Below the pieces are notes generated by a model, which did no database searches, was not told where the DNA came from, and saw only the letters and a program-made list of their open reading frames with translations. A stretch of DNA of 27,815 nt from Chthonomonadales bacterium (GTDB lineage Bacteria; Armatimonadota; Chthonomonadetes; Chthonomonadales; Chthonomonadaceae), in contig JBBQPO010000048.1 of the NCBI GenBank assembly GCA_038217285.1, positions 1 through 27,815 of the forward strand, written 5' to 3'. Below are positions 3,191 to 18,576 of this stretch, piece after piece. Made by a program: the position numbers and the translations under genes. Position 1 is the stretch's first letter. Each line of letters opens with the position of its first letter.

Positions 3191-4030
3191 TCATCCGAAT
3201 CGGCCTTCGACATAGTCGTCTGTGCGCTTGTCGCGGGGACTGCCGAATATCTGCGTGGTATCGCCGGCTTCGACCATGTCGCCTTTGAGAAAGAAGGCGG
3301 CTCGCTCGGCGACCCGCTGAGCCTGCTGCATATTGTGTGTGACGATGACGATAGTATACTTCGTCTTCAACTGCTCCATCAACTCTTCGATGCGGAGCGT
3401 GGAGTTCGGATCGAGGGCGGAACAGGGTTCGTCCATCAAGACGACTTCCGGTTCAACGGCGAGCACTCTGGCAATGCAGAGCCGCTGTTGCTGGCCACCG
3501 GACAGATCGAAAGCCGACTTGTTCAGCACGTCCTTGACCTCATCCCACAGAACGCCCTGCCTTAAACTCTTCTCGACAATCTCATCAAGGCGCTTCTTAT
3601 TGCGTTCGCCATGTAGTTTCGGCCCGTAGGCGACATTCTCCCAGATGCTCATCGGGAACGGGTTGGGGCGCTGAAACACCATGCCGACCCGTTTGCGGAG
3701 ATGCACCACATCGACCTTCTTGCCGTAGATGTCGGCGCCGTCCAGTTTGACCGAGCCTTCCACCTTGATGTCCGGGTAGAGGTCGTTCATGCGGTTGAGG
3801 CAGCGTAGAAATGTCGATTTACCGCAGCCGGACGGCCCAATGAGCGCCGTCACCTGGTGATTGTACATATCCAGGGTTACTTTTTTGAGGGCATGAAACT
3901 TCCCGTAGTAGAAATCCAGATTCTTGACGGCGATTCGCACATCCGAGTCGCCCTTTTCATGGGGATGTTTCTTCGGGGAGGGCCCCGACTCTTTCCCGCC
4001 TACGTCTGTCCCATTTGGACCGGTTTTCAC
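3191..4030 (-). CDS. pstB: Phosphate ABC transporter ATP-binding protein
   Basis: [65 protein letters not shown]-terminal GRFG. GTG start with upstream AAAGGTG. Confidence 0.97.
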
Positions 4031-4117
4031 GCTGTTTCACCTTTCGTCCTGCTCTGTTTGGCGCTCTGTGCGCCTCCGTAAAGGACGGTTACGTTATCGA
4101 AAAGTCTGCGTTGCTAA

Positions 4118-6226
4118 CTAGCTTGCGACTCCCATGCGATTACGGGTCAGGAAGCGCGCCACGATATTCAGACTGAGAACCATCACGACGAGTACCAGCG
4201 CCACGCCCCACGACTGCTTTAGGGCAAGGTCCGACGGGGCATCGCGCAACACATAGATCTGCACCGGTAAGGAAGCCAGTTGCCCATGTGGATTGGTGTT
4301 CCACAAGGAGCTGTTGCACCCGACCATCAGCAGGGGAGCCGTCTCACCGGCGATACGGGCCACCGCCAGCAGGATACCGGTCACGATACCGCTCTTCGCG
4401 GCGGGAAGCACGATCTTCAATATAGTACGAAGTTGAGTCGCTCCGAGTGCCAGCGAGGCTTCGCGAAGGGCCTGCGGCACCAGGCGCACGAGCTCTTCCG
4501 TCGTCCGCATCACGGTCGGAATCATCATGATGCCGAGTGCAAACCCACCGGCGTAGCCGAAGTTTTCGTGCGAGGGATTGAAGCGCGACAGGATGATCAC
4601 CTGGTATGCGAAGATACCGATGACGATCGAGGGAACGCCGTTGAGTAGATCGGTGGCGAACCGGATCCAGAAGCCGAGTTTGTTGTTACCGAACTCGGAC
4701 AGGAAGATACCACCCATCACACCAATGGGGATGCCGAGCGTCGATGCCATGGCGATAAACAGGCCCGTTCCCGCGATGGCATGGAGCATTCCGCCCTTGT
4801 CGGGATTGATCGGGTTCGGCAATTTGAAGAACTGCGCGTTCACCGAAGAAAAGCCCTCTTTCGCCACGAAGTAGAACAGGACCAGGAGTGCAGTACAGCC
4901 TATTATGGTGGCTGCCCCGCACATCGTCAGGGCGAACGTGTTACAGAACTGCCTCCACCGAACGAAGAAAGGTTTGCCTGGTATATAACGGTTGAAGCTG
5001 GAGAGACCGGCAATAAATGCCGTTAGGAGGAATGCGCCGCTGAAAAAGCCTCCTACTCCGCGAGTGCTGAAATCGTACTTCATCTGATAGAGAAGCGTGC
5101 CACTGAACAGCACGATGCCGATCCATCGAATCGACCCGGTGATTGCAGATTTTGCTTTGATACTGAACTCACTGGAGGTTCCTCCTGAGCGCAAAGCCGT
5201 CAGCCAGACGAGGCCTCGGGCTGCGCCATTGAGTAAGATCGTGACGGCAAAGAGGGTGAGCGCGACCTGTGTGAGCGCGGAGATGTGCAGCGGGGAGTTC
5301 GGGCTGGGATACTGGTCCGCAAGGATCGACGTCATCGTGTAGCCGGGCCGGAACAGAGAAAAACTGGAGGCGTCGTGGAGTTTCGGAATACTGACCTTGC
5401 TGCCGATGACGATGGTAACAGCCATTGTCTCCCCGATGGCACGCCCGAGGCCGAGCATGATAGCGCCGATGATGCCGCCGCTTGCATACCGAAGGACGAC
5501 CGTCTTGATGCCCTCCCATTTCGTAGCGCCCATGCCGTAAGCGGCTTCGCGTTGGGCCATCGGTACCGTTCGCAGCACATCCCGCGACACAGCCGTGATG
5601 AACGGCAGGATCATCAGCGTAAGGATGAGACCGGCGGAGAGAAAACTGAGGCCGGAACCTGAGTCGTCGGCCGTCATAAAAAGCGGAATGTGACCGAGGC
5701 TGTTATGGAGCCACTTCTCGCCGTGAGACTGCATTAAGGGGACAAGATAGAGCAGCGCCCAGAAGCCGTACACGATGCTGGGGACAGCGGCGAGCATCTC
5801 GATAAGAAAGGAGAGCGGCGTACTGACCCAGCGAGGAGCGATCTCGGCCAGGAAAATCGCGGCTCCGACTCCTATAGGCACCGCCAGAATCAGGGCAATC
5901 GTGGAGGTGACCAGAGTTCCGTAGATGAACGGGAGTACGCCGTAGACGTCACCGATCAGTTTGTCGGTATCGGCAGGAACGGGATCCCAGGTAGTCATCT
6001 TCAGGAACGAGAAGCCGGTATGCGTGAGATTGGCGCGGGAGGCTAGAAACAGTGTGGCCGCGATACCGAGAATGAAAAGTACCGTGGTGAGGGCGAAAAT
6101 CAACGTGAGGTTACGAAAAATCCAGTCCCCGAGTCCCGCACCGGGGCCGCCGGTCAAATTACTCGGAGTCGGATTTTCTTTTTCGACGGGTACGAGAGAC
6201 GGACTACCCGAAAGTGGTTGTGCCAT
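4118..6226 (-). CDS. pstCA: Fused phosphate ABC transporter permease PstC-PstA
   Basis: 702-aa ORF with two permease units. PstC-like unit: LAAVPSIVYGFW, REAAYGMGAT, GRAIGETMAV. PstA-like unit: LNGVPSIVIGIF, REASLALGAT, ARIAGETAPLL. Confidence 0.93.
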   Translation of the reverse strand: MAQPLSGSPSLVPVEKENPTPSNLTGGPGAGLGDWIFRNLTLIFALTTVLFILGIAATLFLASRANLTHTGFSFLKMTTWDPVPADTDKLIGDVYGVLPFIYGTLVTSTIALILAVPIGVGAAIFLAEIAPRWVSTPLSFLIEMLAAVPSIVYGFWALLYLVPLMQSHGEKWLHNSLGHIPLFMTADDSGSGLSFLSAGLILTLMILPFITAVSRDVLRTVPMAQREAAYGMGATKWEGIKTVVLRYASGGIIGAIMLGLGRAIGETMAVTIVIGSKVSIPKLHDASSFSLFRPGYTMTSILADQYPSPNSPLHISALTQVALTLFAVTILLNGAARGLVWLTALRSGGTSSEFSIKAKSAITGSIRWIGIVLFSGTLLYQMKYDFSTRGVGGFFSGAFLLTAFIAGLSSFNRYIPGKPFFVRWRQFCNTFALTMCGAATIIGCTALLVLFYFVAKEGFSSVNAQFFKLPNPINPDKGGMLHAIAGTGLFIAMASTLGIPIGVMGGIFLSEFGNNKLGFWIRFATDLLNGVPSIVIGIFAYQVIILSRFNPSHENFGYAGGFALGIMMIPTVMRTTEELVRLVPQALREASLALGATQLRTILKIVLPAAKSGIVTGILLAVARIAGETAPLLMVGCNSSLWNTNPHGQLASLPVQIYVLRDAPSDLALKQSWGVALVLVVMVLSLNIVARFLTRNRMGVAS

Positions 6227-6291
6227 GTGGAGAGATTATCCCGTTGACTGTCTGGCTGGAATTTGGATTGGGTTCGGTACAGTCGGTGGTA

Positions 6292-6339
6292 CGCATCTCG
6301 TCTGCATAGGTTCGCAAACCCATGCAGACGAGCGATGCG
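6292..6339 (-). other. Stable stem-loop just downstream of pstS (mRNA stabiliser/attenuator)
   Basis: CTCGTCTGCAT (6297-6307) and ATGCAGACGAG (6322-6332) form a perfect 11-bp stem, extended by CGCAT/ATGCG. Confidence 0.6.
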
Positions 6340-6347
6340 GATCGAAA

Positions 6348-7385
6348 CTATTTGATGACCGCGCCCGGAACGGACTTGATGTTCGCGATGTTGATTTTGA
6401 CGAGAGCCGCCGGCAGCGGTGCATAGAAGAGCGTTTTCGCTTCTTCCTGCACTTTAGCGGACATCGCCCAACTCCACAGCGCCGTAATGTCTCCATTCTT
6501 GGGTCCAGGTGTGCGATAGATAATGATGTAGGTGACGCTGCAGATCGGATAGCTGTTTGCACCTTTCGCATCGACCGTCGGCGTCTTGACGTTACGTGCC
6601 AACTCCGTCACATACTCGTTGATCGCGGCGCTCGTGGAGGCGACCGTCGGCTCGATGAACTTGCCAGCGCGGTTCTTGACGTTGCCGTAGGGCATTTTCT
6701 GGTTGATCGCGTAGGCGAGTTCGACGTAGCCCACGGCCCCCGGAGTGCGCCGCACCAGCGACTCGACGCCTTGATTGCCTTTACCGCCGAGACCAACGGG
6801 CCAGTTTACCGACTTTCCGGCGCCTGGACCGGCAGCCCAGTCACTATTGGCCTTTTTGAGATAGTTGGTAAAGATGTAGGTCGTTCCCGACCCATCCGTC
6901 CGGTGAACCGGCTGAATCGCGACATCGGGTATGTTTTTGCCCGGATTGATTGCCCGGATGCGTGGATCACCCCAGGTTTTGATCTTTCCGAGGAAGATAT
7001 CGCTGATGACATCTGCCGTGAACTGAAGGCCATTGCCGATGCCGGGCAGATTGTAACTGAGAACCACTGCGCCACCTACGGTCGGAATGTGAATGACCTG
7101 ACCCGGCATCGCAGCCTCTTCTGCTGCGGACAGTGGAGCGTCACTGGCTCCGAAGTCGACCGTCTTATTCTTGATGGCGTTGTAGCCTGCGCCGGAACCT
7201 ATTGCCTGATAGTCTACGGACTTGCCGGTCTGCTGTTGGAATTCGGCAAACCATTTCATATAGATCGGAGCCGGGAACGTAGCTCCTGCGCCCCGAATCT
7301 GCGCGGACGCGCCGGTCGGCGCGAGGGCAGCGATCGCCAGCGTCGCGACCGTCGCGAGCTTACCCCATTTATATGTCTGTTTCAT
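6348..7385 (-). CDS. pstS: Phosphate ABC transporter substrate-binding protein
   Basis: Signal peptide, then GAGATFPAPIY, IGSGAG, DFGASDAPL, RTDGSGTT, GYVELAYA, YPI. Start moved to ATG 7385, which has a GAGGAG SD. Confidence 0.96.
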   Translation of the reverse strand: MKQTYKWGKLATVATLAIAALAPTGASAQIRGAGATFPAPIYMKWFAEFQQQTGKSVDYQAIGSGAGYNAIKNKTVDFGASDAPLSAAEEAAMPGQVIHIPTVGGAVVLSYNLPGIGNGLQFTADVISDIFLGKIKTWGDPRIRAINPGKNIPDVAIQPVHRTDGSGTTYIFTNYLKKANSDWAAGPGAGKSVNWPVGLGGKGNQGVESLVRRTPGAVGYVELAYAINQKMPYGNVKNRAGKFIEPTVASTSAAINEYVTELARNVKTPTVDAKGANSYPICSVTYIIIYRTPGPKNGDITALWSWAMSAKVQEEAKTLFYAPLPAALVKINIANIKSVPGAVIK

Positions 7386-7408
7386 GAAATTCTCCTCAGT
7401 CGTAAGGC

Positions 7409-7452
7409 GCGCTCTGTGGGGAGGCGAGCAGTCTCGGCTTCTTACAGAGCGC
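7409..7452 (-). other. Intergenic stem-loop between porin gene and pstS
   Basis: GCGCTCTGT/ACAGAGCGC 9-bp outer stem with an inner CGAG/CTCG stem. Confidence 0.45.
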
Positions 7453-7470
7453 ATCCGTTTAGGTACAAAC

Positions 7471-9093
7471 TCAGAACGCTGTCTGGAAGTTGGACAGCAG
7501 GATCTGCCGGCGTGACCCGAAGAAGGCATATCCGTTGCCCTGCGTGTCTACATCGATGTAGTTGAGCTGAATTTTCGAGTTGTGGCCACGCAAGAAGTAG
7601 TTGACGCCCAGCGTGTATTCGCGCAGATTATGGTGGGAGATGGCGAACGTCTGGTTTGTCGCGAGGCCGGTCGTCGTGCCGCCGTGCACCGCAGGATCCC
7701 ATTCGTCATATCGCGCCACAAACTGTACGCGTTTGTTGAGGGTATGGGCATAGAGCGCATAGCCACCCAGTCCAATGGTGCGCGTGGCAGCGCCCGCGCC
7801 CTGATCGAGCGTATAGGCGCCTTCGGCCTCAAAGGTATGCGGGCCGCTCTCCCACTTGATCGTCGCCCCGGCTCGGTCCCGTTTGGCGCGCGGCCGATAG
7901 TCGTCGATGTTGGAGCCGCCCCACAGGCCAAGGGTCAGGTGGCGGATACCCGTAAAGTAGGCGTTGGCATCGAGGAACTTGTTGCGGTCGTTATCGACGG
8001 CGCTCTGCGTTACGCCGTTGTCGTCCCAGATGCCGACCATCGCACTGGCCTTCGCGCCGCTATAGCGCAGGACGGCGCCTACATCACGGATGTCGCCGAC
8101 CCGACCGACGGTGGTCGGAAGCCCGTTCATGATCGAACGCTCGATGGTCAGCAGTTGCGAGGAGGAGCGCGGTCCCTCTTCACTGAGGCCTGTCTTCTGT
8201 TGACCGATTTCGGCGCGGAAGCGGGGGAAGAGGTTATAGCCGACCCAGAGATCCTGCAGGACGGACGCGTTGCCGGTACCGGTTTTGGCGAGATCGAACA
8301 CCGCGCGGAAGTCCGCCGCTTTGGTGATGCTGCCCGTCACGTTGATCTCGCCGCGTCGGAGGCGGAACGTATCGCCCACGCCGCCGCCGAACGTGCGTCC
8401 GGGGGGCGTGGCGCTGAAGTTGCCCGACGGATTGCCGCCGAGCGTGTTGCCGAACGGAGCGCCGTACCATGCTTGCAGGAGGCCGCCGACCGACAGCTTC
8501 TCGATGCCGTTGTTCATGCCAACTTTTTTGGCCAGTTGCGCATTCGTGGCGTTTTTAAGCTCGGTGACGTTCTCCAGGGCCTGATCGACCGCTGTCGAGG
8601 TGTCCTTGATGCTTTTTTCGTTCGCCGTGATCCGTCCATCGAAGCCGTTGACCTTGTTGGTCAGCGCCCCGACCTGTTGTTTCAAAGCGTCGATATCGTC
8701 TTTCGCCTTGATCAGATCCGTGCCGATGACTAGCAGTTCCTTCTTGAAATCGTCTACGAGCGAACGGATCTCGCCGACACTGGCCTTCAGCGTATCGAGG
8801 TCGGCCTGGCTCGCCCCGGTCGCGCCGGGTTTCTGCTGCGCGAGCAGATCGTCCATACGAGTGATGATTCGCTCGATGATGGTCGCCATCTCATAACGGG
8901 AGAGCGTGCGGTTGCCGAGGAAATTGTTGTCCGGCGGATAGCCTTTGATCAGGCCCTTCATTGCCAGGTCTTTCACGGCGGCGTAGGCCCAGTGGGTAGG
9001 GGGAACGTCTTTGCCCGGCTCTTGCGCCATCGCCAGGGTGGGGAGAGATAGTAGCGAAAGTCCGACACATGTTACTTTCCAGGGGGTGTTCAT
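7471..9093 (-). CDS. SLH-domain outer-membrane porin with coiled-coil stalk, OprO/OprP-like barrel
   Basis: Signal peptide; SLH motif DVPPTHWAY..V..L...G.IKGYP....F.G.R.LSRYEMA; heptad-rich linker; barrel motifs FRLRR, GQQK, SSSQLLTIERS, TLGVNYF..GHNSKIQLNY; C-terminal Phe. First gene of the pst operon. Confidence 0.8.
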   Translation of the reverse strand: MNTPWKVTCVGLSLLSLPTLAMAQEPGKDVPPTHWAYAAVKDLAMKGLIKGYPPDNNFLGNRTLSRYEMATIIERIITRMDDLLAQQKPGATGASQADLDTLKASVGEIRSLVDDFKKELLVIGTDLIKAKDDIDALKQQVGALTNKVNGFDGRITANEKSIKDTSTAVDQALENVTELKNATNAQLAKKVGMNNGIEKLSVGGLLQAWYGAPFGNTLGGNPSGNFSATPPGRTFGGGVGDTFRLRRGEINVTGSITKAADFRAVFDLAKTGTGNASVLQDLWVGYNLFPRFRAEIGQQKTGLSEEGPRSSSQLLTIERSIMNGLPTTVGRVGDIRDVGAVLRYSGAKASAMVGIWDDNGVTQSAVDNDRNKFLDANAYFTGIRHLTLGLWGGSNIDDYRPRAKRDRAGATIKWESGPHTFEAEGAYTLDQGAGAATRTIGLGGYALYAHTLNKRVQFVARYDEWDPAVHGGTTTGLATNQTFAISHHNLREYTLGVNYFLRGHNSKIQLNYIDVDTQGNGYAFFGSRRQILLSNFQTAF

Positions 9094-10366: not shown

Positions 10367-11878
10367 TTAGAGGATGTAGCGGGTAAGATCCTCGTCTTTG
10401 ACGATGTCGTCGAGACGTTGATGGACGTAGGCCGCGTCTATCAAGATCGTTTTGTCGGTGCGGTCGGAGGCATCGAAGGAGACGTCTTCCAACAGGCGCT
10501 CGAGGATCGTGTGCAGGCGTCTTGCCCCGATGTTCTCGGTGCGGCGGTTCACTTCGGCGGCGACTCGGGCCAGTTCGGCGATACCGTCCTCGGCGAACTC
10601 CACCTCGATCCCTTCGGTGGCGAGCAGGCTGACATACTGGCGTGTGAGCGCATTGCGCGGCTCGGTGAGGATGCGCCTGAAGTCGTCTTCCGTGAGATTT
10701 TCCAGTTCAACGCGAATGGGCAGTCGGCCCTGAAGCTCCGGAATGAGGTCGGATGGCTTCGAGACGTGGAAAGCGCCGGCTGCGATGAAGAGGATGTGGT
10801 CGGTGCGCACCGGCCCATGCTTGGTATTGATGGTCGAGCCTTCGATGATCGGCAGAATGTCGCGCTGTACGCCTTCTCGGGACACGTCGGGGCCGCCTGC
10901 ACCGGAGCCGCGATTCGATCCGGCGATCTTGTCGATCTCATCGACGAAGATGATGCCGGTCTGCTCCGTGCGGTGAATCGCCTCGCGCACGACCGAATCC
11001 TTGTCGATCAGCAGTTGCGCCTCTTCGGCGGCGAAGATTTCTTTGGCTTCCGCGATCGTCACCTTCCGCTGCTTCTGTTTGCGCGGAAAGACGCCGCTGA
11101 AGGCGTTCTGCATATCCATGCCCATATCGTCCGTGCCCTGCCCGGACAGGGCCTGCATAAACGGCATCGGCTGGCTCTCTTCCACCGTGATCTCCACGGT
11201 CTCCGTATCGAGCGCTCCCGACACGATCTGAGGCCGCAGGCGGCCGCGAATCCGTTCGCGACGTTCACGGTCGGTTCGAGCCTCCTGGTCACGTTCCGCC
11301 TGCGCGGTTTCGTCGTGTGCCGTGACATCGACCTCGACAGGGGTGTCTGGCGCTGCGTTGCCGCCGCCGAACATCCGGCTCATCATCTGCTGTAAATCGC
11401 GCGTGATGTCGGACTTGTCTGCGCCGGTGCGACGCGCAGGCTGGGACTGCTGCATCGGCTGCATTATCTCCAGAATACGCTCCACCGCGCGTTCGGCCGC
11501 CGCCGCTTTGACTTCCGCGATCTTTTCCGTCTCCACGAGCCGGATGGCGATCTGCAGGAGATCCCGCACCATAGAATCGACATCCCGCCCGACGTAGCCG
11601 ACCTCCGTAAACTTTGTGGCCTCTACTTTAATGAAGGGGGCGCGTGCCAGGGTGGCGAGCCTGCGCGCGATCTCAGTTTTGCCGACTCCCGTCGGCCCGA
11701 TCATCAGGATATTCTTGGGGATCACCTCGTCTCGCAGATCCTCCGGCAACAGACGGCGGCGGTAGCGATTGCGAAGTGCAACCGCTACCGCCCGTTTTGC
11801 TTTGTTCTGTCCGATGATATACTTGTCCAGTTCGGCGACGATCTGGATGGGTGTCAACTCTTCCGTAAATTCGGCCAT
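10367..11878 (-). CDS. hslU: ATP-dependent protease ATPase subunit HslU (ClpY)
   Basis: [63 protein letters not shown]-terminal DLTRYIL. Start moved to ATG 11878. Confidence 0.97.
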
Positions 11879-11979
11879 TGTTCTCGGTGGTCCTTCAGTG
11901 TGCTGTTCTTCCCTCCCTATACGTGCCGGGAGGGGGCATGAGTTCATTATACACCGTAGAGCCCGATTGGACGCCGAAC

Positions 11980-12717
11980 CTACGGCACGGGCATCAGGCC
12001 GGTGTCGGTAGGTATGGCAGGAGTTGGGATGCACTGGGAGGATATAAGGCCTTCCGACGCCAGTTTCGCGTGGCCGTCCACGAAATAGGCGACTCGGTCC
12101 GGGCCATACGTCGTGTTGCCCGGCGTGGATCCCGCCCAGGCTTTCACCGCTTCCGCCGCACCGATGTGAAACGAGAGGACTTCCGCCCCCATGTACGTTT
12201 CCGCCGTACGTGGTATGGCGGCAAGGCTGGCCAGGCGCGTCACGACGGTGTTCAGGCAGTAGCTGGTCTTCTCGACCTTCCAGACAGGCAGACCTTGTGA
12301 GGGGTCGTTGACCAGCGAAGCGGGAATACCGACGTCACTCGGACACTTGAAAATGTCGATGCTTTTGATGTAGGGCTGGGCGTAGATCGTCGGATCGTAT
12401 GTCACGGTGTCGTCGGTTTTGAGGTGAGGGCGGCAGGGCTTACAGGGGTACTTGTTCGTATAGGTCGTCGAAGGCCCCCACTGTGAGTTGGCCGGTGAGT
12501 TGGAGGGTGGAAACGTCTCGTCGTAGTCTTGTACATACATCATCCAGCCGAGGCCGAACTGTTTGACGTTCGAAATGCAGGCCGTGCGGCGGGCGCTCTC
12601 GCGTGCCTTCGCAAAGACCGGGAACAAGATAGCCGCCAGAATGGCTATAATGGCGATAACGACGAGCAGTTCTATCAGGGTGAACCCGTCGGATGCGAAA
12701 CGAGGTCGGCGGTGCAT
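11980..12717 (-). CDS. Prepilin-type N-terminal cleavage/methylation, DUF1559-family protein
   Basis: [41 protein letters not shown]...MY.QDYDE; FKCPSD; C-terminal FVDGHAK; AAGGAG SD. Confidence 0.92.
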
Positions 12718-12747
12718 GATAAGAGATCTCCTTGAATGATAAAGGCG

Positions 12748-12767
12748 CGGAGGCAGTCTTGCCTCCG
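12748..12767 (-). terminator. Weak terminator/attenuator hairpin between ATPase and pilin-like gene
   Basis: CGGAGGCA/TGCCTCCG perfect 8-bp stem; on the minus strand it is followed only by a weak U-tract (CGCCTTTATCATT). Confidence 0.4.
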
Positions 12768-12771
12768 TACT

Positions 12772-13509
12772 TTAGGGAATCGGTCCGGCAGTGTCCTGGA
12801 CCAGGCGACCATCGCGCAGCGTCAGTTGGCGCGGCGCGGCGGCGGCAAGCCAGGGGTTATGGGTGACGACGAGAACCGTCAGACCATCGCGATTAAGCTC
12901 CTGAAACAGAGCCAGTATCGCTTCTCCGCTGGCGCTGTCGAGGTTGCCTGTCGGCTCATCCGCGAGGAGCAGGCTTGGCGAATTGATGAGGGCGCGCGCA
13001 ATGGCGACCCGCTGCATCTCCCCACCGGACAGCTCGTGCGGACGGTGGTTGCGGCGATGGGAGAGGCCGACCCTGTCGAGCAACACTTCGGCCTGTTCTG
13101 CAGCGCGCCGACGAGAAAAGAGCGTGGGCAGGGTCACATTCTCTGCGACGCTCAGTGTCGGGAGCAGGCCGAAATGCTGAAACACGAAGCCGACCTGCTC
13201 CCGGCGCAATCGTGTCAAGGCACCGTCCCGCATTCCCGAGGTCGACGTACCGGAGAGAGCGAGCAGCCCGGACGTCGGGGTGTCCATACACCCCAGTAAG
13301 TGAAGCAGGGTGGTCTTCCCAGCCCCCGAGGGGCCGACAATGGCGACGAACTCGCCCGCCGACACGTTGAACGTGACGTTGTCCAGCGCATGAACGCGCT
13401 CGTTCCCGCGCTGATACGTCTTGGTGAGCCCGTCGGCCCGGATCAACGCGGGCCTCAAGGGCCGCACCGCGGGCAAAGGGGTAACGATCTCTGCCATGAC
13501 ACTGTTCAT
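12772..13509 (-). CDS. ABC transporter ATP-binding protein (LolD/MacB-type)
   Basis: [48 protein letters not shown] 13509 overlaps the upstream stop (ATGA) and has a GGAGGAGG SD. Confidence 0.93.
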
Positions 13510-14687
13510 AGTCCTCCTCCGGCCCTTATCGCTTCGATGGGGGTGAGACGGGACGCCCGCCATGCGGGCAGGAGCCCGGCCATGCTGCCAAGCCCCAGAG
13601 CCACGGCGAGGCATACGAGCAACAGTCCGGCCTCCGGGCGTATGAGCGTCTCGGTCGGTGCAAACGGCAGGCGGTCGCGCATCCAGGACTCGATGCCGTG
13701 TGCGCCGAGGAGGGCGAGCGCCGCACCTGCGATCCCGCCGACGAGGCAGACCTGCACGGTTTCCAGCCAGATGAGCCCGAAGATATCCAGGGGCGAGGCG
13801 CCGACGGCGCGCATCACCCCGATCTCGCGGGTGCGCTCCGTTACCGCCATCAACACCGTGTTGCTGACGCCCGCTCCGGCGATCAGCAGCGCGACCACCG
13901 CAACGCAGCCCAGCAGAGCGCGCGTCGAGTTCACCAGCCCTTGAATCGTATGGAACAGATGTGCCAGCGGCACGACGTTCATATCCATGCCGGCGTCGCA
14001 GCCTCTCAGATCGCTCACCACCTGATCCAGTCGGTTCGGGTCCGTCAGGCGAACGAGAATATGGGTCAACTGATTCGGCCTCCGGAAAATGCGCTGTGCT
14101 TCCGCCAACGGCATGTACGTGAAATCGTCGTCGGCGCCCTGCGTTGGGGCGAGGATGCCGCTCACGACGCCGGTCTCGCCGGGGAGACCGGGCAGCGCGA
14201 ACTCCTGGCCCAGTTTGACGTGAAGTTTCGCCGCGATGTGCGCTCCGAGCAGCCGACCACGCGCTTGTTGCGGAAAGGTTCCGTTCAGATGCCAACTGCG
14301 TTTAACCGCCATCAGTCCCGGCTCCGCGCCCTGGTAGACGAACTGTTCGCCCGTACTGTTATCGTAGACCGCGTTCATCAGGATCGGAGCGGCCATGGCC
14401 ACACCTGCCGTCTGGGAGACCCGCTGCAGGTAGTCGGCCTTAAGATAGCAGGGCCAGCTCGCACCGTGCAGCGCGATGGAGGCGGCATCGTACGGACAGC
14501 CTTTCGGCACGACCAGGACATGCGCGCCGAGCCGCTCCAGTTCGTTCTGCATTCCGACCTGATAGCCGCGCTGAAACGAGAGCAGGCTGAAGAGGGCGGC
14601 GATGGCGATCGCTACCCCGCTGACCGTCACTCCGGTCCGCAATTTCCGTCTCCCAGCATTTTTTAACGCGAGCGAAATCCAGTGCAT
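13506..14687 (-). CDS. ABC transporter permease (MacB/FtsX family)
   Basis: N-terminal TM, periplasmic domain with VPKGCPYDAA, NTVLMAVTERTREIGVMRAVGA, PAWRASRL.P.EA. Start at ATG 14687 with GAAGGAAG. Confidence 0.9.
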   Translation of the reverse strand: MHWISLALKNAGRRKLRTGVTVSGVAIAIAALFSLLSFQRGYQVGMQNELERLGAHVLVVPKGCPYDAASIALHGASWPCYLKADYLQRVSQTAGVAMAAPILMNAVYDNSTGEQFVYQGAEPGLMAVKRSWHLNGTFPQQARGRLLGAHIAAKLHVKLGQEFALPGLPGETGVVSGILAPTQGADDDFTYMPLAEAQRIFRRPNQLTHILVRLTDPNRLDQVVSDLRGCDAGMDMNVVPLAHLFHTIQGLVNSTRALLGCVAVVALLIAGAGVSNTVLMAVTERTREIGVMRAVGASPLDIFGLIWLETVQVCLVGGIAGAALALLGAHGIESWMRDRLPFAPTETLIRPEAGLLLVCLAVALGLGSMAGLLPAWRASRLTPIEAIRAGGGL

Positions 14688-14700
14688 GAATCTTCCTTCG

Positions 14701-15867
14701 TCAGGTTCCCACGGCGCGCAGGGCGCGGGCGGGTGGGAGACGACTGGCCTGCCAGGCCGGATAGAGGCCGGCCACAATCCCTGTCGCCAGGCCGACCAGC
14801 AGGCACTGCCCAATAACCGTGCCGGAGAGAGAGAGCAGGCTGCCATCGGGCGCGAGCGTTACGAAATGACGGACGACGGCCTCGATGCTGTGGCCTGTGG
14901 CCAGCGCGAGCAGGAGCCCGATCAGGCTTCCCACCACTGTCAGCAGCAGGGCTTCGAGCGCAAGGAGCCGAAACACCTGCCCGCGCGATGCACCGACCGC
15001 GCGCAGGATCGCCAGTTCTCCGGTCCGCTCCAATACCGACGCCAGCATGGTATTGAACACGGTGAGGACGCTGATCGTAACTGCGAGCACTGCCACGGCC
15101 ATGACCAGGGTGCGGACCGCGCCGACGAGGTTCAGGAAAGTGCCCAGCATCTCCGCCAACGTCACGACCTGTGCGCCCGGCGTCTTCTGAAGGCGTTCGA
15201 TAGCGCCGGTCACCAGACCCGGATCCCGGAGGCGTATCGCGATGGCGGTGAGGCGGTCCGGCTGATGAAACATCACCTGCGCGGTGTGGAGCTGTATGAA
15301 GAAGAGGCTGTCGTCGCTGGTGCCGCTGCGTTCGAGGATGCCGCAGACCCGGAAGCGTCGGCCCGTTTCCGGACTGTAGAGCATATCCCCCACCTCGCGC
15401 AGCTCGGTCGCGGCCGCTTCCGCTCCCAGAATCACGCTGTCAGCATCGGCGAACCACCGCGAACCCGCCTTCAGTTTCCACCACGGCTTGAGCGGCCGGA
15501 TCGATTCGTCGACCCCGACCCAGCAGTCGGTGCGCCCTTCGGATGGGCGGGGCAGTGTCGCCATCAGTAGGGGAGCGGCCACCGCCACCGCCGCGTCTGC
15601 GCGCGCCGCCGTGAGCGCTGTCAACGGCAGGGAGACATCCAGTGTCTTTCCTTTCAATACTCGGGCGGCGGCATCGTAGGGGCAGCCGAGCGGTACCAAC
15701 ATCATCTGTACGCCCATACCGTCGAGTTCCCGCCGCAGTCCGTTTCGATAGCCCTCTCCAAACGCCAGCAGGCAGGCGAGACAGCCGACGGCGACCGCGA
15801 CGCCGGTGATGGTGATTCCGCTGCGAAAGAGACGCCTGGTCAGGTTTTGGAGGGCCAGTGTCATCAT
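14701..15867 (-). CDS. ABC transporter permease (MacB/FtsX family)
   Basis: VPLGCPYDAA, NTMLASVLERTGELAILRAVGA, YPAWQASRL.P..AL. Paralog of the downstream permease. Confidence 0.9.
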   Translation of the reverse strand: MMTLALQNLTRRLFRSGITITGVAVAVGCLACLLAFGEGYRNGLRRELDGMGVQMMLVPLGCPYDAAARVLKGKTLDVSLPLTALTAARADAAVAVAAPLLMATLPRPSEGRTDCWVGVDESIRPLKPWWKLKAGSRWFADADSVILGAEAAATELREVGDMLYSPETGRRFRVCGILERSGTSDDSLFFIQLHTAQVMFHQPDRLTAIAIRLRDPGLVTGAIERLQKTPGAQVVTLAEMLGTFLNLVGAVRTLVMAVAVLAVTISVLTVFNTMLASVLERTGELAILRAVGASRGQVFRLLALEALLLTVVGSLIGLLLALATGHSIEAVVRHFVTLAPDGSLLSLSGTVIGQCLLVGLATGIVAGLYPAWQASRLPPARALRAVGT

Positions 15868-16536
15868 CTATGGGATTGCTCCGGACACCGGGGCGCTATC
15901 CGCCACGGAGAGCAGCACGAGCATGGCATGTGCGGCTTCGAGAATCGCGGTGGCGGAGGATCGTGCGGCGGGAGGAACGTCGGGGATGTCGGCACCGATC
16001 CGCCATGCCGACGCCCTGTTCTTGCCGATGAATGCGCCGAGCCATCGTGCGGACTGCAACGCCTGCGCGACCTCCTCCGGCTCGCGCAGGCGTTGCAGAC
16101 GAGCGCCCAGGACGTCGCCGTTCGCGCCGACTGCCAGCAACAACTCGATAACGCCGGACTCTCCTCGCACTCGCCGGGCGACGACCGAACCCAGAACATC
16201 GTCGTGGCGCAGGATGCGGTAAACCTTCAAGGCGTTCTCTTCCGTCGTGCTGGCCCGTCCAAGCTGCCGCGCGACTTCCAGGCGCTTTCCGCTCAGGATC
16301 AGGGTTTCATCGCGGACATCGGTCGCGGTCGGAAAGAACTGACGACGGTCCCGAGCCTCTTCGCGCCAGGGGCAGAGGCCGACAGAGGGCTGCTCACGCG
16401 AGACGAAATCACGGGCGTCCGCGTGCGCCACCAGGACGTCTCCCGTCCTGGCAGAAAGGGAGAGCACCGCATAGAGCAGCGCGGTGCCGATAGCCAGCCC
16501 CAGCGAGGCCACAACGATCCAGGCGCGCTTTGTCAG
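15868..16536 (-). CDS. Membrane-anchored FMN-binding-domain-like protein (degenerate flavinylation motif); probable CTG start
   Basis: One N-terminal TM helix. FFP.A, G..G.IELLLAV...G.V, REP, WL..F.GK and DI..V...A.SS..I follow the FMN_bind family pattern. The ORF extension to 16710 overlaps the upstream gene. Confidence 0.65.
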   Translation of the reverse strand: MTKRAWIVVASLGLAIGTALLYAVLSLSARTGDVLVAHADARDFVSREQPSVGLCPWREEARDRRQFFPTATDVRDETLILSGKRLEVARQLGRASTTEENALKVYRILRHDDVLGSVVARRVRGESGVIELLLAVGANGDVLGARLQRLREPEEVAQALQSARWLGAFIGKNRASAWRIGADIPDVPPAARSSATAILEAAHAMLVLLSVADSAPVSGAIP

Positions 16537-16895
16537 TAGCGTACTCCGGATGCTTTCAACCCGACTTCTGTGCCGGATGCCACTGTGCCGCTCACCGTCA
16601 TCGTCGTGTGCAGGGGCACCTCGCTGACGACGAACCCAGCCTGCTTCGTATCCACTCGTACCATTCCTGTCTTGTCGCGCAGCATGAACCAGCAGCCTGC
16701 GACAGGGCATTTCTCTACCATCTCGCCTTTCACGGTCACGACGCTGCCTGTCTTTGCAGACAACTCGCGCACAAGGATAGTCGGCTGTTGCGCGGGAGCC
16801 TTGCCGAGAATGTTCGTTTGCGTCGGCGCGCAGCCCACCGCGAGCAGGATCACCAGAGCCGGCAGTGGCGCAATGCGGTTGACGGTGAAAGTCAT
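16533..16895 (-). CDS. Lipoprotein, DUF4920-like OB-fold with CxxxGCW motif
   Basis: Lipobox LAVG-C; VTVKGEMVEKCPVAGCWFMLRD; ATG 16895 with GGAGGAG SD. Confidence 0.75.
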   Translation of the reverse strand: MTFTVNRIAPLPALVILLAVGCAPTQTNILGKAPAQQPTILVRELSAKTGSVVTVKGEMVEKCPVAGCWFMLRDKTGMVRVDTKQAGFVVSEVPLHTTMTVSGTVASGTEVGLKASGVRY

Positions 16896-16946
16896 TCTCT
16901 CCTCCAAGGTTTAGGATCAGACGCGAATTGAGATCGATTACCTTGC

Positions 16947-16999
16947 ATTTTACTCCCTCTCCATTAAAGACCGCTTAAATCCTCATTAAGATAATTTAA
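16947..16999 (-). promoter_or_regulatory. OmpR/PhoB-type direct-repeat operator plus -10 element
   Basis: TTAA at 16964, 16975, 16986 and 16996 (spacing 11, 11, 10). TAAAAT -10 at 16952-16947, 11 nt from the proximal TTAA. Confidence 0.55.
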
Positions 17000-17101
17000 G
17001 CCGCCTCGTCCGGTAGTCGATCATGCTAGTGGCTTTACGGGGACGACGGTTGGGCATAGGGCCGGGGCCAGCTTTTACCCTCTGTTTCGGCTGTGGAACT
17101 C

Positions 17102-17130
17102 TTGCTTTTTTGAGGGGACTGTGATATACT
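17102..17130 (+). promoter_or_regulatory. Sigma70 promoter of nusA operon
   Basis: TTGCTT, 17 nt, TATACT, with an extended -10 (TGA-TATACT). Confidence 0.8.
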
Positions 17131-17161
17131 GCTAGGGCTTACAGTTACACCCGTCTGCCAG

Positions 17162-17190
17162 GAGTGGGTCCTTACCCACTCTTTTGTATT
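17162..17190 (+). promoter_or_regulatory. rimP/nusA leader attenuator hairpin
   Basis: GAGTGGGT-CCTT-ACCCACTC followed by TTTTGTATT. Resembles the GAGTGGG...CCCACTC leader I recall upstream of rimP-nusA operons. Confidence 0.7.
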
Positions 17191-17292
17191 ATATGGCGAT
17201 TCCGACGCAGACCGGTACCATTTGTCGGGCTGCGAGCGGAGACCAGGGTGCATCGAACCCGGGCCGACCCTGTTTTGGAGAAGCGCGTAACT

Positions 17293-18576
17293 ATGAATGG
17301 TGAATTTCTCGAAGCACTTCAGGCAATTGCAAAAGAAAAAGATATACCGCTGGATACCCTGATCGAAACGGTCGAATCGGCGCTGGCGACAGCCTACAAG
17401 CGGAATAGTCCGACGACCGGCGAAGTCAAAGTGCATATCGACTCGCAACGTGGGTCCGCCCAACCGTTCTTTGTCTTCGTTGAGAAGACGGTCGTTGAAG
17501 TTGTCGAGAACGAGCAAGAGGAGATCGCGCTGGAAGATGCGCGGAAGCTCGATCCGGAAGCCCTGGTCGGCGAACCGGTCAAGATTCCTGTGCCGCTCGG
17601 CAGTTTCGGGCGTATCGCCGCGCAGACCGCCAAGCAGGTCGTGGTGCAGCGGATCCGCGAGGCCGAGCGCCGTAAGATTTTCGATGAATACAACGAGCGC
17701 GTCAGTGAGGTCGTGACCGGCACCGTGCAGCGCCGCGAAGGCGGTAATGTCGTGATCACGCTGGGGAAACTCGACGCGATTCTGCCGCGCCAGGAGCAGG
17801 TCGAATCGGAGCCGTACCGTTTCAATGATCGTATAAAAGTCTATGTGCTGGAAGTCCGCGATGGCGTCAAGGGGCCGCAGGTCATTGTCTCGCGTACCCA
17901 TCCAAGCTTGATCCGCCGCCTGTTCGAACTGGAAGTGCCGGAGATCTCCGACGGCATCGTGACCATCAAGAGCGTGGCGCGGGAGCCGGGCGCACGCTCC
18001 AAAATCGCGGTGATGAGCCGCGACGAGAAGGTCGATCCTGTTGGCGCCTGCGTAGGGCATCGCGGCGCGCGGGTTCAGGCCGTGGTCAATGAGCTTTACG
18101 ACGAAAAGATAGACATTGTACGCTGGAATGCGGACAACGGCCTCTTCATCGCAGAAGCGCTCTCACCGGCGAAAGCCGTGAAAGTGATTGTGAAAGAAGA
18201 CGAGAAAAGCGCCTTCGTCGTTGTGCCGGACAATCAACTTTCCCTGGCGATCGGTAAAGCGGGTCAGAACGTGCGCCTTGCCGCCCGACTCACCGGATGG
18301 AGGATCGACATTCGCAGCGAGGCCCAGGTGGCGCGCGCGGCTCTCATCTCGATGACCCCGAGTGACGAGGAACCGGAAGACGACCTGCCAACTCCTGAAG
18401 AAGACTCTATTGAGGAGAGTTTCATCGGGGAAGCCCCCAACGCGGAGAGCGATGGCGACATCGGGGATGCAGAGGCGGAGAATGTTGGCGTACAGGAGGC
18501 TGATTCTGTACGTATAGAAGAGGAGGAGAGCGTTTCCGTCGAGACGGCTCCTCATGATACGGAACCGGGTTCTTAA
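17293..18576 (+). CDS. nusA: Transcription termination/antitermination factor NusA
   Basis: FGRIAAQTAKQV, VSRTHP, AREPG.RSKIAV, DPVGACVG..G.RV, SLAIGK.GQNVRLAARLTGW; acidic C-terminal tail. Start at ATG 17293. Confidence 0.98.
   Translation: MNGEFLEALQAIAKEKDIPLDTLIETVESALATAYKRNSPTTGEVKVHIDSQRGSAQPFFVFVEKTVVEVVENEQEEIALEDARKLDPEALVGEPVKIPVPLGSFGRIAAQTAKQVVVQRIREAERRKIFDEYNERVSEVVTGTVQRREGGNVVITLGKLDAILPRQEQVESEPYRFNDRIKVYVLEVRDGVKGPQVIVSRTHPSLIRRLFELEVPEISDGIVTIKSVAREPGARSKIAVMSRDEKVDPVGACVGHRGARVQAVVNELYDEKIDIVRWNADNGLFIAEALSPAKAVKVIVKEDEKSAFVVVPDNQLSLAIGKAGQNVRLAARLTGWRIDIRSEAQVARAALISMTPSDEEPEDDLPTPEEDSIEESFIGEAPNAESDGDIGDAEAENVGVQEADSVRIEEEESVSVETAPHDTEPGS

Follow-up and report, generated by a model that had tools for sequence, protein, structure and literature searches.

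A cluster of six co-oriented genes occupies positions 11980–16895 on the minus strand of contig JBBQPO010000048.1 from a Chthonomonadales bacterium (assembly GCA_038217285.1). The genes run in the order lipoprotein, FMN_bind-like protein, permease A, permease B, ATPase and DUF1559 pilin-like protein. The window analyzed here is this entire contig (C48; 27,815 nucleotides), and the genome comprises 6.2 Mb in 459 contigs and is 95.27% complete. A sequence-only reading of the window had proposed a tightly coupled, six-gene envelope system built around a MacB-type ATP-binding cassette (ABC) transporter, and the open reading frames (ORFs) and the sequence bear out the gene arrangement, as follows.

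16533–16895, minus strand: oligonucleotide/oligosaccharide-binding (OB)-fold lipoprotein, 120 residues; an ORF whose ATG has a GGAGGAG ribosome-binding site in front
15868–16512, minus strand: membrane-anchored FMN_bind-like (RnfG/NqrC-fold) protein, 214 residues; probable start GTG at 16512
14701–15867, minus strand: MacB/FtsX-type permease A, 388 residues; MacB_PCD and FtsX matches
13506–14687, minus strand: MacB/FtsX-type permease B, 393 residues; MacB_PCD and FtsX matches
12772–13509, minus strand: ABC ATPase resembling LolD and the MacB nucleotide-binding domain, 245 residues; ABC_tran match
12718–12771, minus strand: ATPase–pilin spacer, 54 nucleotides; 8-bp GC-rich hairpin and AAGGAG ribosome-binding site
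11980–12717, minus strand: DUF1559 pilin-like protein, 245 residues; N_methyl and SBP_bac_10 matches

Most of the close junctions described earlier hold. The permease A ATG directly abuts the stop codon of the FMN_bind-like gene, 13 nucleotides separate the two permease genes, the stop codon of permease B and the ATPase ATG overlap by four nucleotides (ATGA), and the 54-nucleotide spacer precedes the pilin gene. By contrast, the lipoprotein and FMN_bind-like genes probably do not abut. The most likely start of the latter is the GTG at 16512, where both of the nearest relatives (L001 and L002) have an ATG in the alignment, and this start leaves a gap of 20 nucleotides. The spacer region (12710–12785) folds at −20 kcal/mol (z −2.26, with 6 of 200 shuffled sequences equally stable), and its hairpin is followed by an interrupted T-run. 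This hairpin may tune expression of the pilin gene relative to the ABC genes; because the spacer is only ~25 nucleotides long in the related locus L003, it need not be conserved. A promoter and terminator scan of 11700–17300 gave counts not above those of shuffled sequences and no convincing terminator or promoter in the spacer.

Both permeases match MacB_PCD (PF12704) and FtsX (PF02687) above the family cut-offs, with E-values of 2.4e-16 and 2.3e-18 for permease A and of 4.3e-19 and 4.3e-18 for permease B. By their domain content they are type VII (MacB/FtsX-type) ABC permeases, with a first transmembrane helix (TM1), a MacB-like periplasmic domain and a C-terminal FtsX domain. The two are ~37% identical to each other, and their closest solved chains are MacB (5gko, 1.7e-14), LolE, LolF and YtrF. 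The ATPase matches ABC_tran (3.1e-35, 122 bits), and its best NCBIfam matches are LolD, the MacB nucleotide-binding domain and FtsE. Two diverged MacB_PCD + FtsX permeases with an ABC_tran ATPase are thus in keeping with the heterodimeric MacB-type transporter suggested from the letters.

The same matches raise the possibility of a Lol-like machine that would extract the lipoprotein or the pilin helix from the inner membrane and pass it on, with purely structural cysteines. LolCE and LolD are the best NCBIfam models, solved chains of LolE and LolF rank among the nearest, two diverged permeases with one ATPase gene reproduce the LolCDE layout, and the cluster's own products include a lipoprotein and, in the pilin, a protein with an N-terminal membrane helix. 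The scores, however, lie far under the family cut-offs: the lolCE model gives 81.4 bits for permease A and 67.4 bits for the other permease against 362.45, and LolD gives 242.1 bits against 307.75. We return to this alternative below, where the distribution of the system bears on it.

Each permease carries a cysteine motif just behind TM1, VPLGCPYDAA in permease A (C62) and VPKGCPYDAA in permease B (C64), and permease B has two further motifs, WPCY (C80) and RGCD (C230). C62 is present in 22 of 22 ortholog rows and C64 in 21 of 21; C80 and C230 are kept in all 19 true orthologs, that is, in the 21 rows less L002 and L005, which are permease A rather than permease B genes. Among the 150 best representatives of permease A, the GCP motif follows TM1 in 45 of the 56 full-length single-domain permeases, and four more have a cysteine there in a variant motif, so the motif is not private to this lineage. 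Fused permeases of at least 700 residues carry it in only 1 case of 39.

The lipoprotein combines a lipobox, LAVGC (C22), with the motif CPVAGCW (C63 and C68), and all three cysteines are invariant in 22 of 22 ortholog rows from the 22 related loci. Its Pfam scores are borderline (BOF, 25.7 bits against a cut-off of 25.8; DUF4920, 22.4 bits against 25), and a profile built from 23 homologs matches Escherichia coli YgiW (1nnx) with an E-value of 4.5e-6. As had been suggested, every extracytoplasmic part of the system carries cysteine motifs, and these prove invariant in the orthologs from the related loci.

The FMN_bind-like protein is recognizable by structure. A search with the 280-residue ORF gave no Pfam family at E ≤ 0.01 and no NCBIfam match, none of its 89 homologs carries a precomputed Pfam domain, and an ESM Atlas look-up gave no usable match. 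The AlphaFold2 model (predicted local distance difference test (pLDDT) score, 89.5) places an N-terminal membrane helix before an RnfG/NqrC fold; Foldseek returned 13 Protein Data Bank chains at E ≤ 0.001, all of them RnfG or NqrC, with RnfG 9eri_G on top (2.9e-6). After the anchor helix comes the motif GLCPWR, in which C58, P59, W60 and R61 are invariant across homologs, the cysteine being kept in 22 of 22 ortholog rows. The homologs form 89 clusters whose named members are mostly Chthonomonadaceae, and named homologs of the cluster's proteins in general come from Chthonomonadaceae and other Armatimonadota.

The FMN-domain label given to this protein therefore stands for the fold but not for the flavin. 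RnfG and NqrC bear a flavin-attachment motif, which we take to be [S/T]GA[S/T] near the C-terminal helix. With that placement assumed, the motif is missing at the aligned site, where the window has VPPAARSSA and distant relatives have DPSxxS. Strings of the form [S/T]GA[S/T] do occur in 7 of the 89 homologs; we rejected them as flavinylation sites, as the five with visible context lie in the variable tail or elsewhere, in non-homologous and non-conserved positions. We also observed that the closest relatives end their C-terminal tail (window 15868–15900) in SGA plus I, A or T (SGAIP in the window, SGATH in P0004). This tail resembles the flavinylation motif, by chance or by descent, but its last residue is not conserved. 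The protein is thus probably an FMN_bind fold that is not flavinylated, and the missing motif at the aligned site makes a flavin redox relay unlikely.

A periplasmic FMN-type protein beside two permeases and an ATPase also recalls the Campylobacter jejuni 1651–1656 genes, which are linked to metal acquisition and encode two MacB-type permeases and an ATPase along with thioredoxins or an FMN-binding protein in the periplasm (PMC6083913, PMC8238504). The cluster could then be an accessory module of P19/Ftr1-type iron uptake, since the parts are similar: two inner-membrane permeases and an ATPase, joined outside Proteobacteria by an FMN-binding protein (PMC6083913, PMC8238504). The 95.27%-complete genome, however, contains no match to P19 (PF10634), and neither the P19 nor the Ftr1 gene was seen in any flank scanned. 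We rejected a P19-linked iron system on the first of these grounds and consider this alternative extremely improbable.

The last gene encodes a protein of a kind that abounds in some phyla. Genomes of Planctomycetota, Verrucomicrobiota and Armatimonadota carry tens to hundreds of genes for DUF1559 and related pilin-like proteins, which to our knowledge have no settled function. The window's protein matches N_methyl (PF07963, 33.4 bits against a cut-off of 21.2; TIGR02532, 33.1 bits) and SBP_bac_10/DUF1559 (PF07596, 40.5 bits against a cut-off of 23.3), the latter over profile positions 2–49 of 268 only, and its similarity to solved pilins is confined to the N-terminal helix. Behind the prepilin leader and this helix lies a globular part with six conserved cysteines, including those of the motif PCKPCR, along with H184 and DGH216. 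C47, C95, C125, C154 and C229 are found in 19 of 19 orthologs and C92 in 18, the exception being the frameshifted L014. Invariant columns number 48 in 18 orthologs and 38 in 98, and these 38 include PCKPCR, SYCxN, E179, H184, DGH216 and QC229. A gene for a prepilin peptidase (Peptidase_A24) and three secretin genes are present elsewhere in the genome.

Is this gene part of the system or a chance neighbor, one of many scattered paralogs with no part in ABC function? Adjacency alone is weak evidence, because 70 ORFs of the genome, the cluster's own gene included, match the pilin profile. The hairpin in the 54-nucleotide spacer also speaks for a chance neighbor, as does hslU (10367–11878), an unrelated gene that follows the pilin gene in the same orientation ~100 nucleotides downstream. 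Comparison across relatives argues strongly the other way. The core order of lipoprotein, FMN_bind-like protein, permease A, permease B and ATPase is constant in 22 of 22 related loci. A full-length pilin ortholog (41–88% identity) adjoins this core in all 18 informative loci, the other four (L001, L002, L005 and L011) ending too early, yet its side changes: it lies downstream of the ATPase in 11 and upstream of the lipoprotein in 7. Flanks beyond core and pilin vary among these loci. We also observed a second, partial copy of the core on the 2.9-kb contig C437 (locus L116, 1–2939), which holds the end of an FMN_bind-like gene followed by permease A and B homologs, each 64% identical to the window's. 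It may represent another, divergent system, or the contig may have strayed into the bin.

Phylogeny and distribution further separate the linked pilins from their paralogs. In a quick IQ-TREE search with 18 linked pilins and the 35 best-scoring of the 70 paralog matches (L014 being left out as frameshifted), the linked pilins form a single clade supported by a Shimodaira–Hasegawa-like approximate likelihood ratio of 99. The motif C[KR]xCR occurs in 18 of the 18 linked pilins and in none of the 35 paralogs, and it is present in 120 of 120 database homologs of the pilin among the matches listed, an Armatimonas sp. protein being among the orthologs. Across a sample of 401 genomes of the phylum, 53 have the FMN_bind-like marker, 37 have a pilin ortholog (E ≤ 1e-45) and 35 have both; in 31 of these 35, the two matches lie on one contig, 0.35–3.7 kb apart. 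One of the two pilin-only genomes has a weak match (G054, 163 bits) and in the other the match lies near the end of a 5-kb contig (G074). The window's own genome has only one pilin ortholog. In two relatives the linked pilin gene appears split into two overlapping pieces in different frames (L014:11247-12027 and G384:C3:125096-125879), which may reflect a frameshift or an assembly error.

Because the adjacency is kept despite the change of side, the linked pilins form their own clade and the two markers co-occur across the phylum, we regard the pilin as part of the unit and hold with high confidence that the six genes are a conserved whole. The proposed co-occurrence of the pilin gene with the core is thus supported by all informative loci and by nearly all pilin-positive genomes of the phylum, and a chance neighbor is hardly credible. 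One more observation stands against chance: the pilin gene never shares a locus with a porin-like gene.

This last point emerged from the phylum genomes that have the FMN_bind-like marker and no pilin. There are 18 of these; we examined 11, leaving out G389, G017, G031, G131, G212, G302 and G312. All 11 loci have genes for the FMN_bind-like and OB-fold proteins, two permeases and two ATPases; 10 also encode a porin-like protein, and a pilin match is absent from all 11. Conversely, at E ≤ 1e-3 there is no porin-like match in the 22 pilin-type loci or in the window's whole genome. In the pilin-type cluster, the gene of a dedicated DUF1559 protein thus seems to have taken the place of the porin-like outer-membrane gene. 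We infer that this was a functional replacement of the porin-like protein by the pilin rather than an unrelated gain and loss.

The porin-like gene belongs to a wider module. A metagenome scan with a 14-row permease alignment sharing KGCPYEA yielded 80 loci (L025–L104), which represent one subgroup and not the whole GCP family, namely relatives of P0220 at 46–56% identity (two near-identical ones excepted). The module consists of a porin-like protein, an FMN_bind-like protein, often a DUF4920-like OB-fold protein, a GCP permease and an ATPase. Where enough sequence was available, the same-strand stretch upstream of the permease encodes an FMN_bind-like homolog (53 of 54 loci), a porin-like protein of ~340 residues (45 of 46, with weak Porin_4 or Porin_O_P matches in two), a DUF4920-like OB-fold protein (39 of 69) and a YtkA-like protein (16 of 40). 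In the 20 long loci examined, a single permease gene precedes a single ATPase gene (two in L047). Two layouts can be seen: porin-like, FMN_bind-like, OB-fold, permease and ATPase; or YtkA-like, porin-like, FMN_bind-like, permease and ATPase without an OB-fold gene (for example in L052, L079, L103 and L104). The OB-fold and YtkA-like proteins may stand in for each other as chaperones; YtkA/CtaK domains have been implicated in supplying copper to the CuA site (PMC13344008).

Two cysteine motifs connect the groups. The N-terminal motif of the FMN_bind-like protein aligns between the window's lineage (GLCPWRxPxxD...FFP) and the wider module (VGC[SD]LNDPDRD...FP), as does ECxxGCWF in the OB-fold protein. 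In Pfam and NCBIfam, no model gives the accessory proteins of the wider module a name. Likewise, we found no description of either the cluster or the module among curated families or in the open literature, covered at the level of titles and abstract openings, with subscription journals outside; the earlier impression that the cluster matches no characterized transporter is upheld within that range. In the same literature DUF4920 is not mentioned, and a single paper mentions DUF1559 alongside an ABC transporter, in passing.

The wider distribution tells further against Lol-type extraction of a lipoprotein or pilin helix. With the core marker in only 53 of 401 phylum genomes, this is no housekeeping sorter, and the GCP cysteine and FMN_bind-like partner persist throughout a module that mostly lacks a pilin and encodes a single permease. 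Extraction would also leave the regulators found beside the relatives, described next, unexplained. Despite the family resemblance of the engine, we therefore judge a Lol-like function improbable.

What do relatives of the module have as neighbors? In at least 10 of 41 loci, the gene immediately upstream, in the same orientation, encodes a CsoR-family repressor, the 41 being those with a porin-like match and at least 400 bp of sequence further upstream; not every upstream ORF was scanned, and 10 is thus a lower bound.

CsoR-bearing loci: L027, L030, L040, L045, L051, L060, L068, L077, L082, L090

All 10 CsoR-like neighbors keep a Cys + HxxxC pattern, and the one in L051 scores best against RicR (73 bits, below the cut-off). 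Other neighbors include YHS (L051 and L111), NosL and MerR (L074), NosD-like (L047), cupredoxin-like (L045) and Rrf2 (L033, L083 and L096) genes. More distant relatives are carried on plasmids. In Massilia putida, the order is ArsR/SmtB, a 313-residue hypothetical protein (itself the query for the porin-like matches above), an FMN_bind-like homolog (E 5e-12, motif CVWR), a small protein, a GCP permease, an ATPase and DsbD-N. In Vibrio campbellii it is ArsR/SmtB (with a CVC motif), a small CxxxxC protein, a GWCAYE permease, an ATPase and TlpA, and this module adjoins a P-type ATPase and a thioredoxin. Taken together, the relatives' contexts point to soft-metal stress, copper first, with thiol or sulfur chemistry as the main alternative.

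According to that alternative, the system would be an extracytoplasmic thiol, persulfide or sulfur relay. The single invariant cysteines would shuttle electrons or sulfane sulfur from the periplasm to a target or back, the target here being the pilin-like protein; the ABC engine would gate this traffic, and metals would not be its substrate. ArsR- and CsoR-family members can sense persulfides, which counts in its favor. So do the TlpA, DsbD-N and thioredoxin genes of the plasmid relatives and the genes for sulfite-reductase-like, IscS/NifU, Rrf2, DsrE/DsrH and TauE proteins near some other relatives. The fold of the FMN_bind-like protein fits as well, FMN_bind being typical of extracytosolic electron-transfer proteins (PMC8238504). 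Yet the aligned site of this protein has no flavin-attachment motif, all 10 CsoR-like neighbors have the Cys + HxxxC pattern of Cu(I) sensors, the YtkA-like, YHS and NosL neighbors suggest copper, and no pilin-type cluster includes a thiol oxidoreductase gene. We consider a thiol or sulfur relay unlikely, and still the most serious of the competing explanations.

Our preferred reading is of a thiolate-lined machine that handles a soft metal, probably copper, and several points weigh against it. FeoB, like the sulfur-type genes just listed, occurs near some relatives, and these mixed neighbors mean that sulfur or iron–sulfur chemistry fits as well. The thiol reductases of the plasmid relatives could likewise point to a redox relay rather than to metal binding. 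Neither the window nor the 16 pilin-type relatives scanned have a metal regulator or known copper gene beside the cluster, and the metal link comes from homologs that are only 25–40% identical. The Cys + HxxxC pattern is taken here as the fingerprint of Cu(I)-sensing CsoR proteins. Some distant relatives have lost the second cysteine of the OB-fold protein. The predicted structure of the pilin, from 18 orthologs, has a pLDDT of 48.5 and does not place the cysteine and histidine arrangement, and the genome encodes two ApbE flavin transferases elsewhere, so that flavinylation at an unusual site is conceivable. Finally, the related genomes share recent ancestry and do not count as independent samples; the majority are metagenome-assembled.

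The earlier proposal of a thiol-based metal-handling or redox relay accordingly divides. The regulators and neighbors of distant relatives lend the metal half indirect support, even though no metal regulator accompanies the cluster itself, and a relay through flavin is unlikely. The pilin could be cargo, receptor or conduit. Soft-metal handling in general strikes us as plausible, if slightly less than probable. The full version, in which the pilin serves a probably copper-handling machine as a lineage-specific outer partner, is one that we favor tentatively.

Such a machine might work as follows. MacB-type engines do not carry a solute through the membrane; they convert ATP hydrolysis into movements of their periplasmic domains. 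The engine here would be a LolCDE-like type VII ABC assembly that pairs permeases A and B with what are presumably two copies of the one ATPase, and in it each permease would present its one invariant GCP cysteine just after the first strand of the periplasmic domain. The RnfG/NqrC-fold subunit, lacking a flavin-attachment motif, would add the GLCPWR cysteine, and the YgiW-like lipoprotein the CxxxxCW pair. The GCP, LCPW and CxxxxCW thiolates could thereby form a chain of soft-metal sites, most likely for Cu(I), and the ABC engine could switch their affinity or access to drive metal capture or release. The pilin, anchored by its N-terminal helix, would use its six cysteines and conserved His, Asp and Glu residues as an outer acceptor, donor or conduit. 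In doing so it would fill the role played elsewhere by the porin-like protein, as the link between the machine and the cell surface.

As to direction, CsoR- and ArsR-type repressors are released by excess metal, and because of this detoxification or export is somewhat likelier than acquisition; taken by itself, export remains rather doubtful. Metal binding, the identity of the metal, the direction of transfer and physical contact between the parts are what we infer from these patterns of conservation and context. The most specific proposal casts the DUF1559 pilin not as a pilus subunit but as the outward arm of a thiolate-lined copper relay driven by ATP, doing the job that the porin-like protein does in other phyla; it is speculative and on balance unlikely to be right in every part.

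There are several implications. First, the cluster gives one well-defined DUF1559 subfamily a fixed genetic partner, and would thus supply a functional context for it. Second, it exposes a widespread and unnamed MacB-type module with a probably non-flavinylated FMN_bind-like subunit, often behind copper-type repressors. If this module handles copper, it would be a third kind of energized periplasmic copper machine, beside the Cus-type resistance–nodulation–division pumps and NosDFY–NosL, and would extend MacB-type mechanotransmission to metal transfer. Finally, if the pilin is an outward arm, part of the DUF1559 expansion could consist of envelope-spanning adaptors that plug into inner-membrane machines, and the wider module would then represent a new class of copper-responsive envelope system with a MacB-type engine.

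The surroundings of the cluster are varied. The pilin–hslU arrangement recurs in three relatives (L003, L015 and L020), and hslV was not noticed beside hslU in the ORF lists. On the other side, nusA diverges upstream of the cluster. In the divergent region just before the plus-strand nusA ORF, there is a 10-bp inverted repeat at 17160–17183 with a T-rich run, which could be a leader or attenuator structure of a nusA–infB operon; we dropped it as a CsoR-type operator, since the orientation of its half-sites is wrong relative to the operator consensus. Elsewhere in the window, a phosphate-uptake set lies on the minus strand (3194–9093).

3194–4030, minus strand: PstB-like ATPase, part of the phosphate-uptake set
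4121–6226, minus strand: 702-residue protein with two BPD_transp_1 stretches, phosphate-uptake set
6348–7529, minus strand: PBP_like_2 binding protein, phosphate-uptake set
7474–9093, minus strand: 540-residue protein with a surface-layer homology (SLH) domain and a Porin_O_P domain, upstream in the phosphate-uptake set

The 540-residue protein may be an SLH-tethered phosphate porin.

Among known systems, LolCDE shares the layout, with two diverged MacB_PCD + FtsX permeases and one ATPase gene, and it acts by mechanotransmission on membrane-anchored envelope proteins. In contrast to LolCDE, the cluster scores far below the equivalog cut-offs, has GCP cysteines in both permeases and is patchily distributed, and Lol has no counterpart of its obligatory FMN_bind-like and OB-fold partners or of its linked pilin. 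MacB pumps, which take substrate from the periplasm and expel it by ATP-driven periplasmic movements, share the permease fold, and the wider module resembles MacAB–TolC in having its own outer-membrane protein gene (in the 45 of 46 loci mentioned above). The cluster, by contrast, has neither a MacA-type adaptor nor a TolC-type duct, its ATPase is a separate gene, its outer component is pilin-like (porin-like in the wider module) and its parts are lined with cysteines. The C. jejuni P19/Ftr1 module likewise groups two permeases, an ATPase and an FMN-type protein in one operon, whereas the cluster adds an OB-fold lipoprotein and a pilin, has an FMN_bind-like protein without the flavinylation motif and lacks P19 and Ftr1.

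NosDFY–NosL offers a parallel in logic. There, an ABC engine powers the handover of copper by a lipoprotein chaperone to its periplasmic client, and the FMN_bind protein NosR is encoded in the same clusters. The ABC-driven relay would be alike, and a NosL gene stands beside one distant relative (L074). NosFY, however, is not MacB-type, a Pfam scan of the window gave no NosD, NosY or NosZ homologs, and the likeness is one of logic, not ancestry. The lipoprotein is linked to YgiW/YdeI (BOF) periplasmic OB-fold stress proteins by its profile match to 1nnx, while its Pfam scores for BOF and DUF4920 are borderline; it differs in its CxxxxCW motif, which is not found in the aligned YgiW, in its lipid anchor and in belonging to an ABC operon. 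Like other members of its family, the pilin shows the prepilin leader, N-terminal helix and SBP_bac_10 start of DUF1559 proteins of Planctomycetota, Verrucomicrobiota and Armatimonadota, but belongs to a single-copy subfamily with six conserved cysteines and PCKPCR that is genetically tied to an ABC module. What is known here is the MacB-type ABC engine; what is new is the undescribed accessory set around it, together with its DUF1559 partner.

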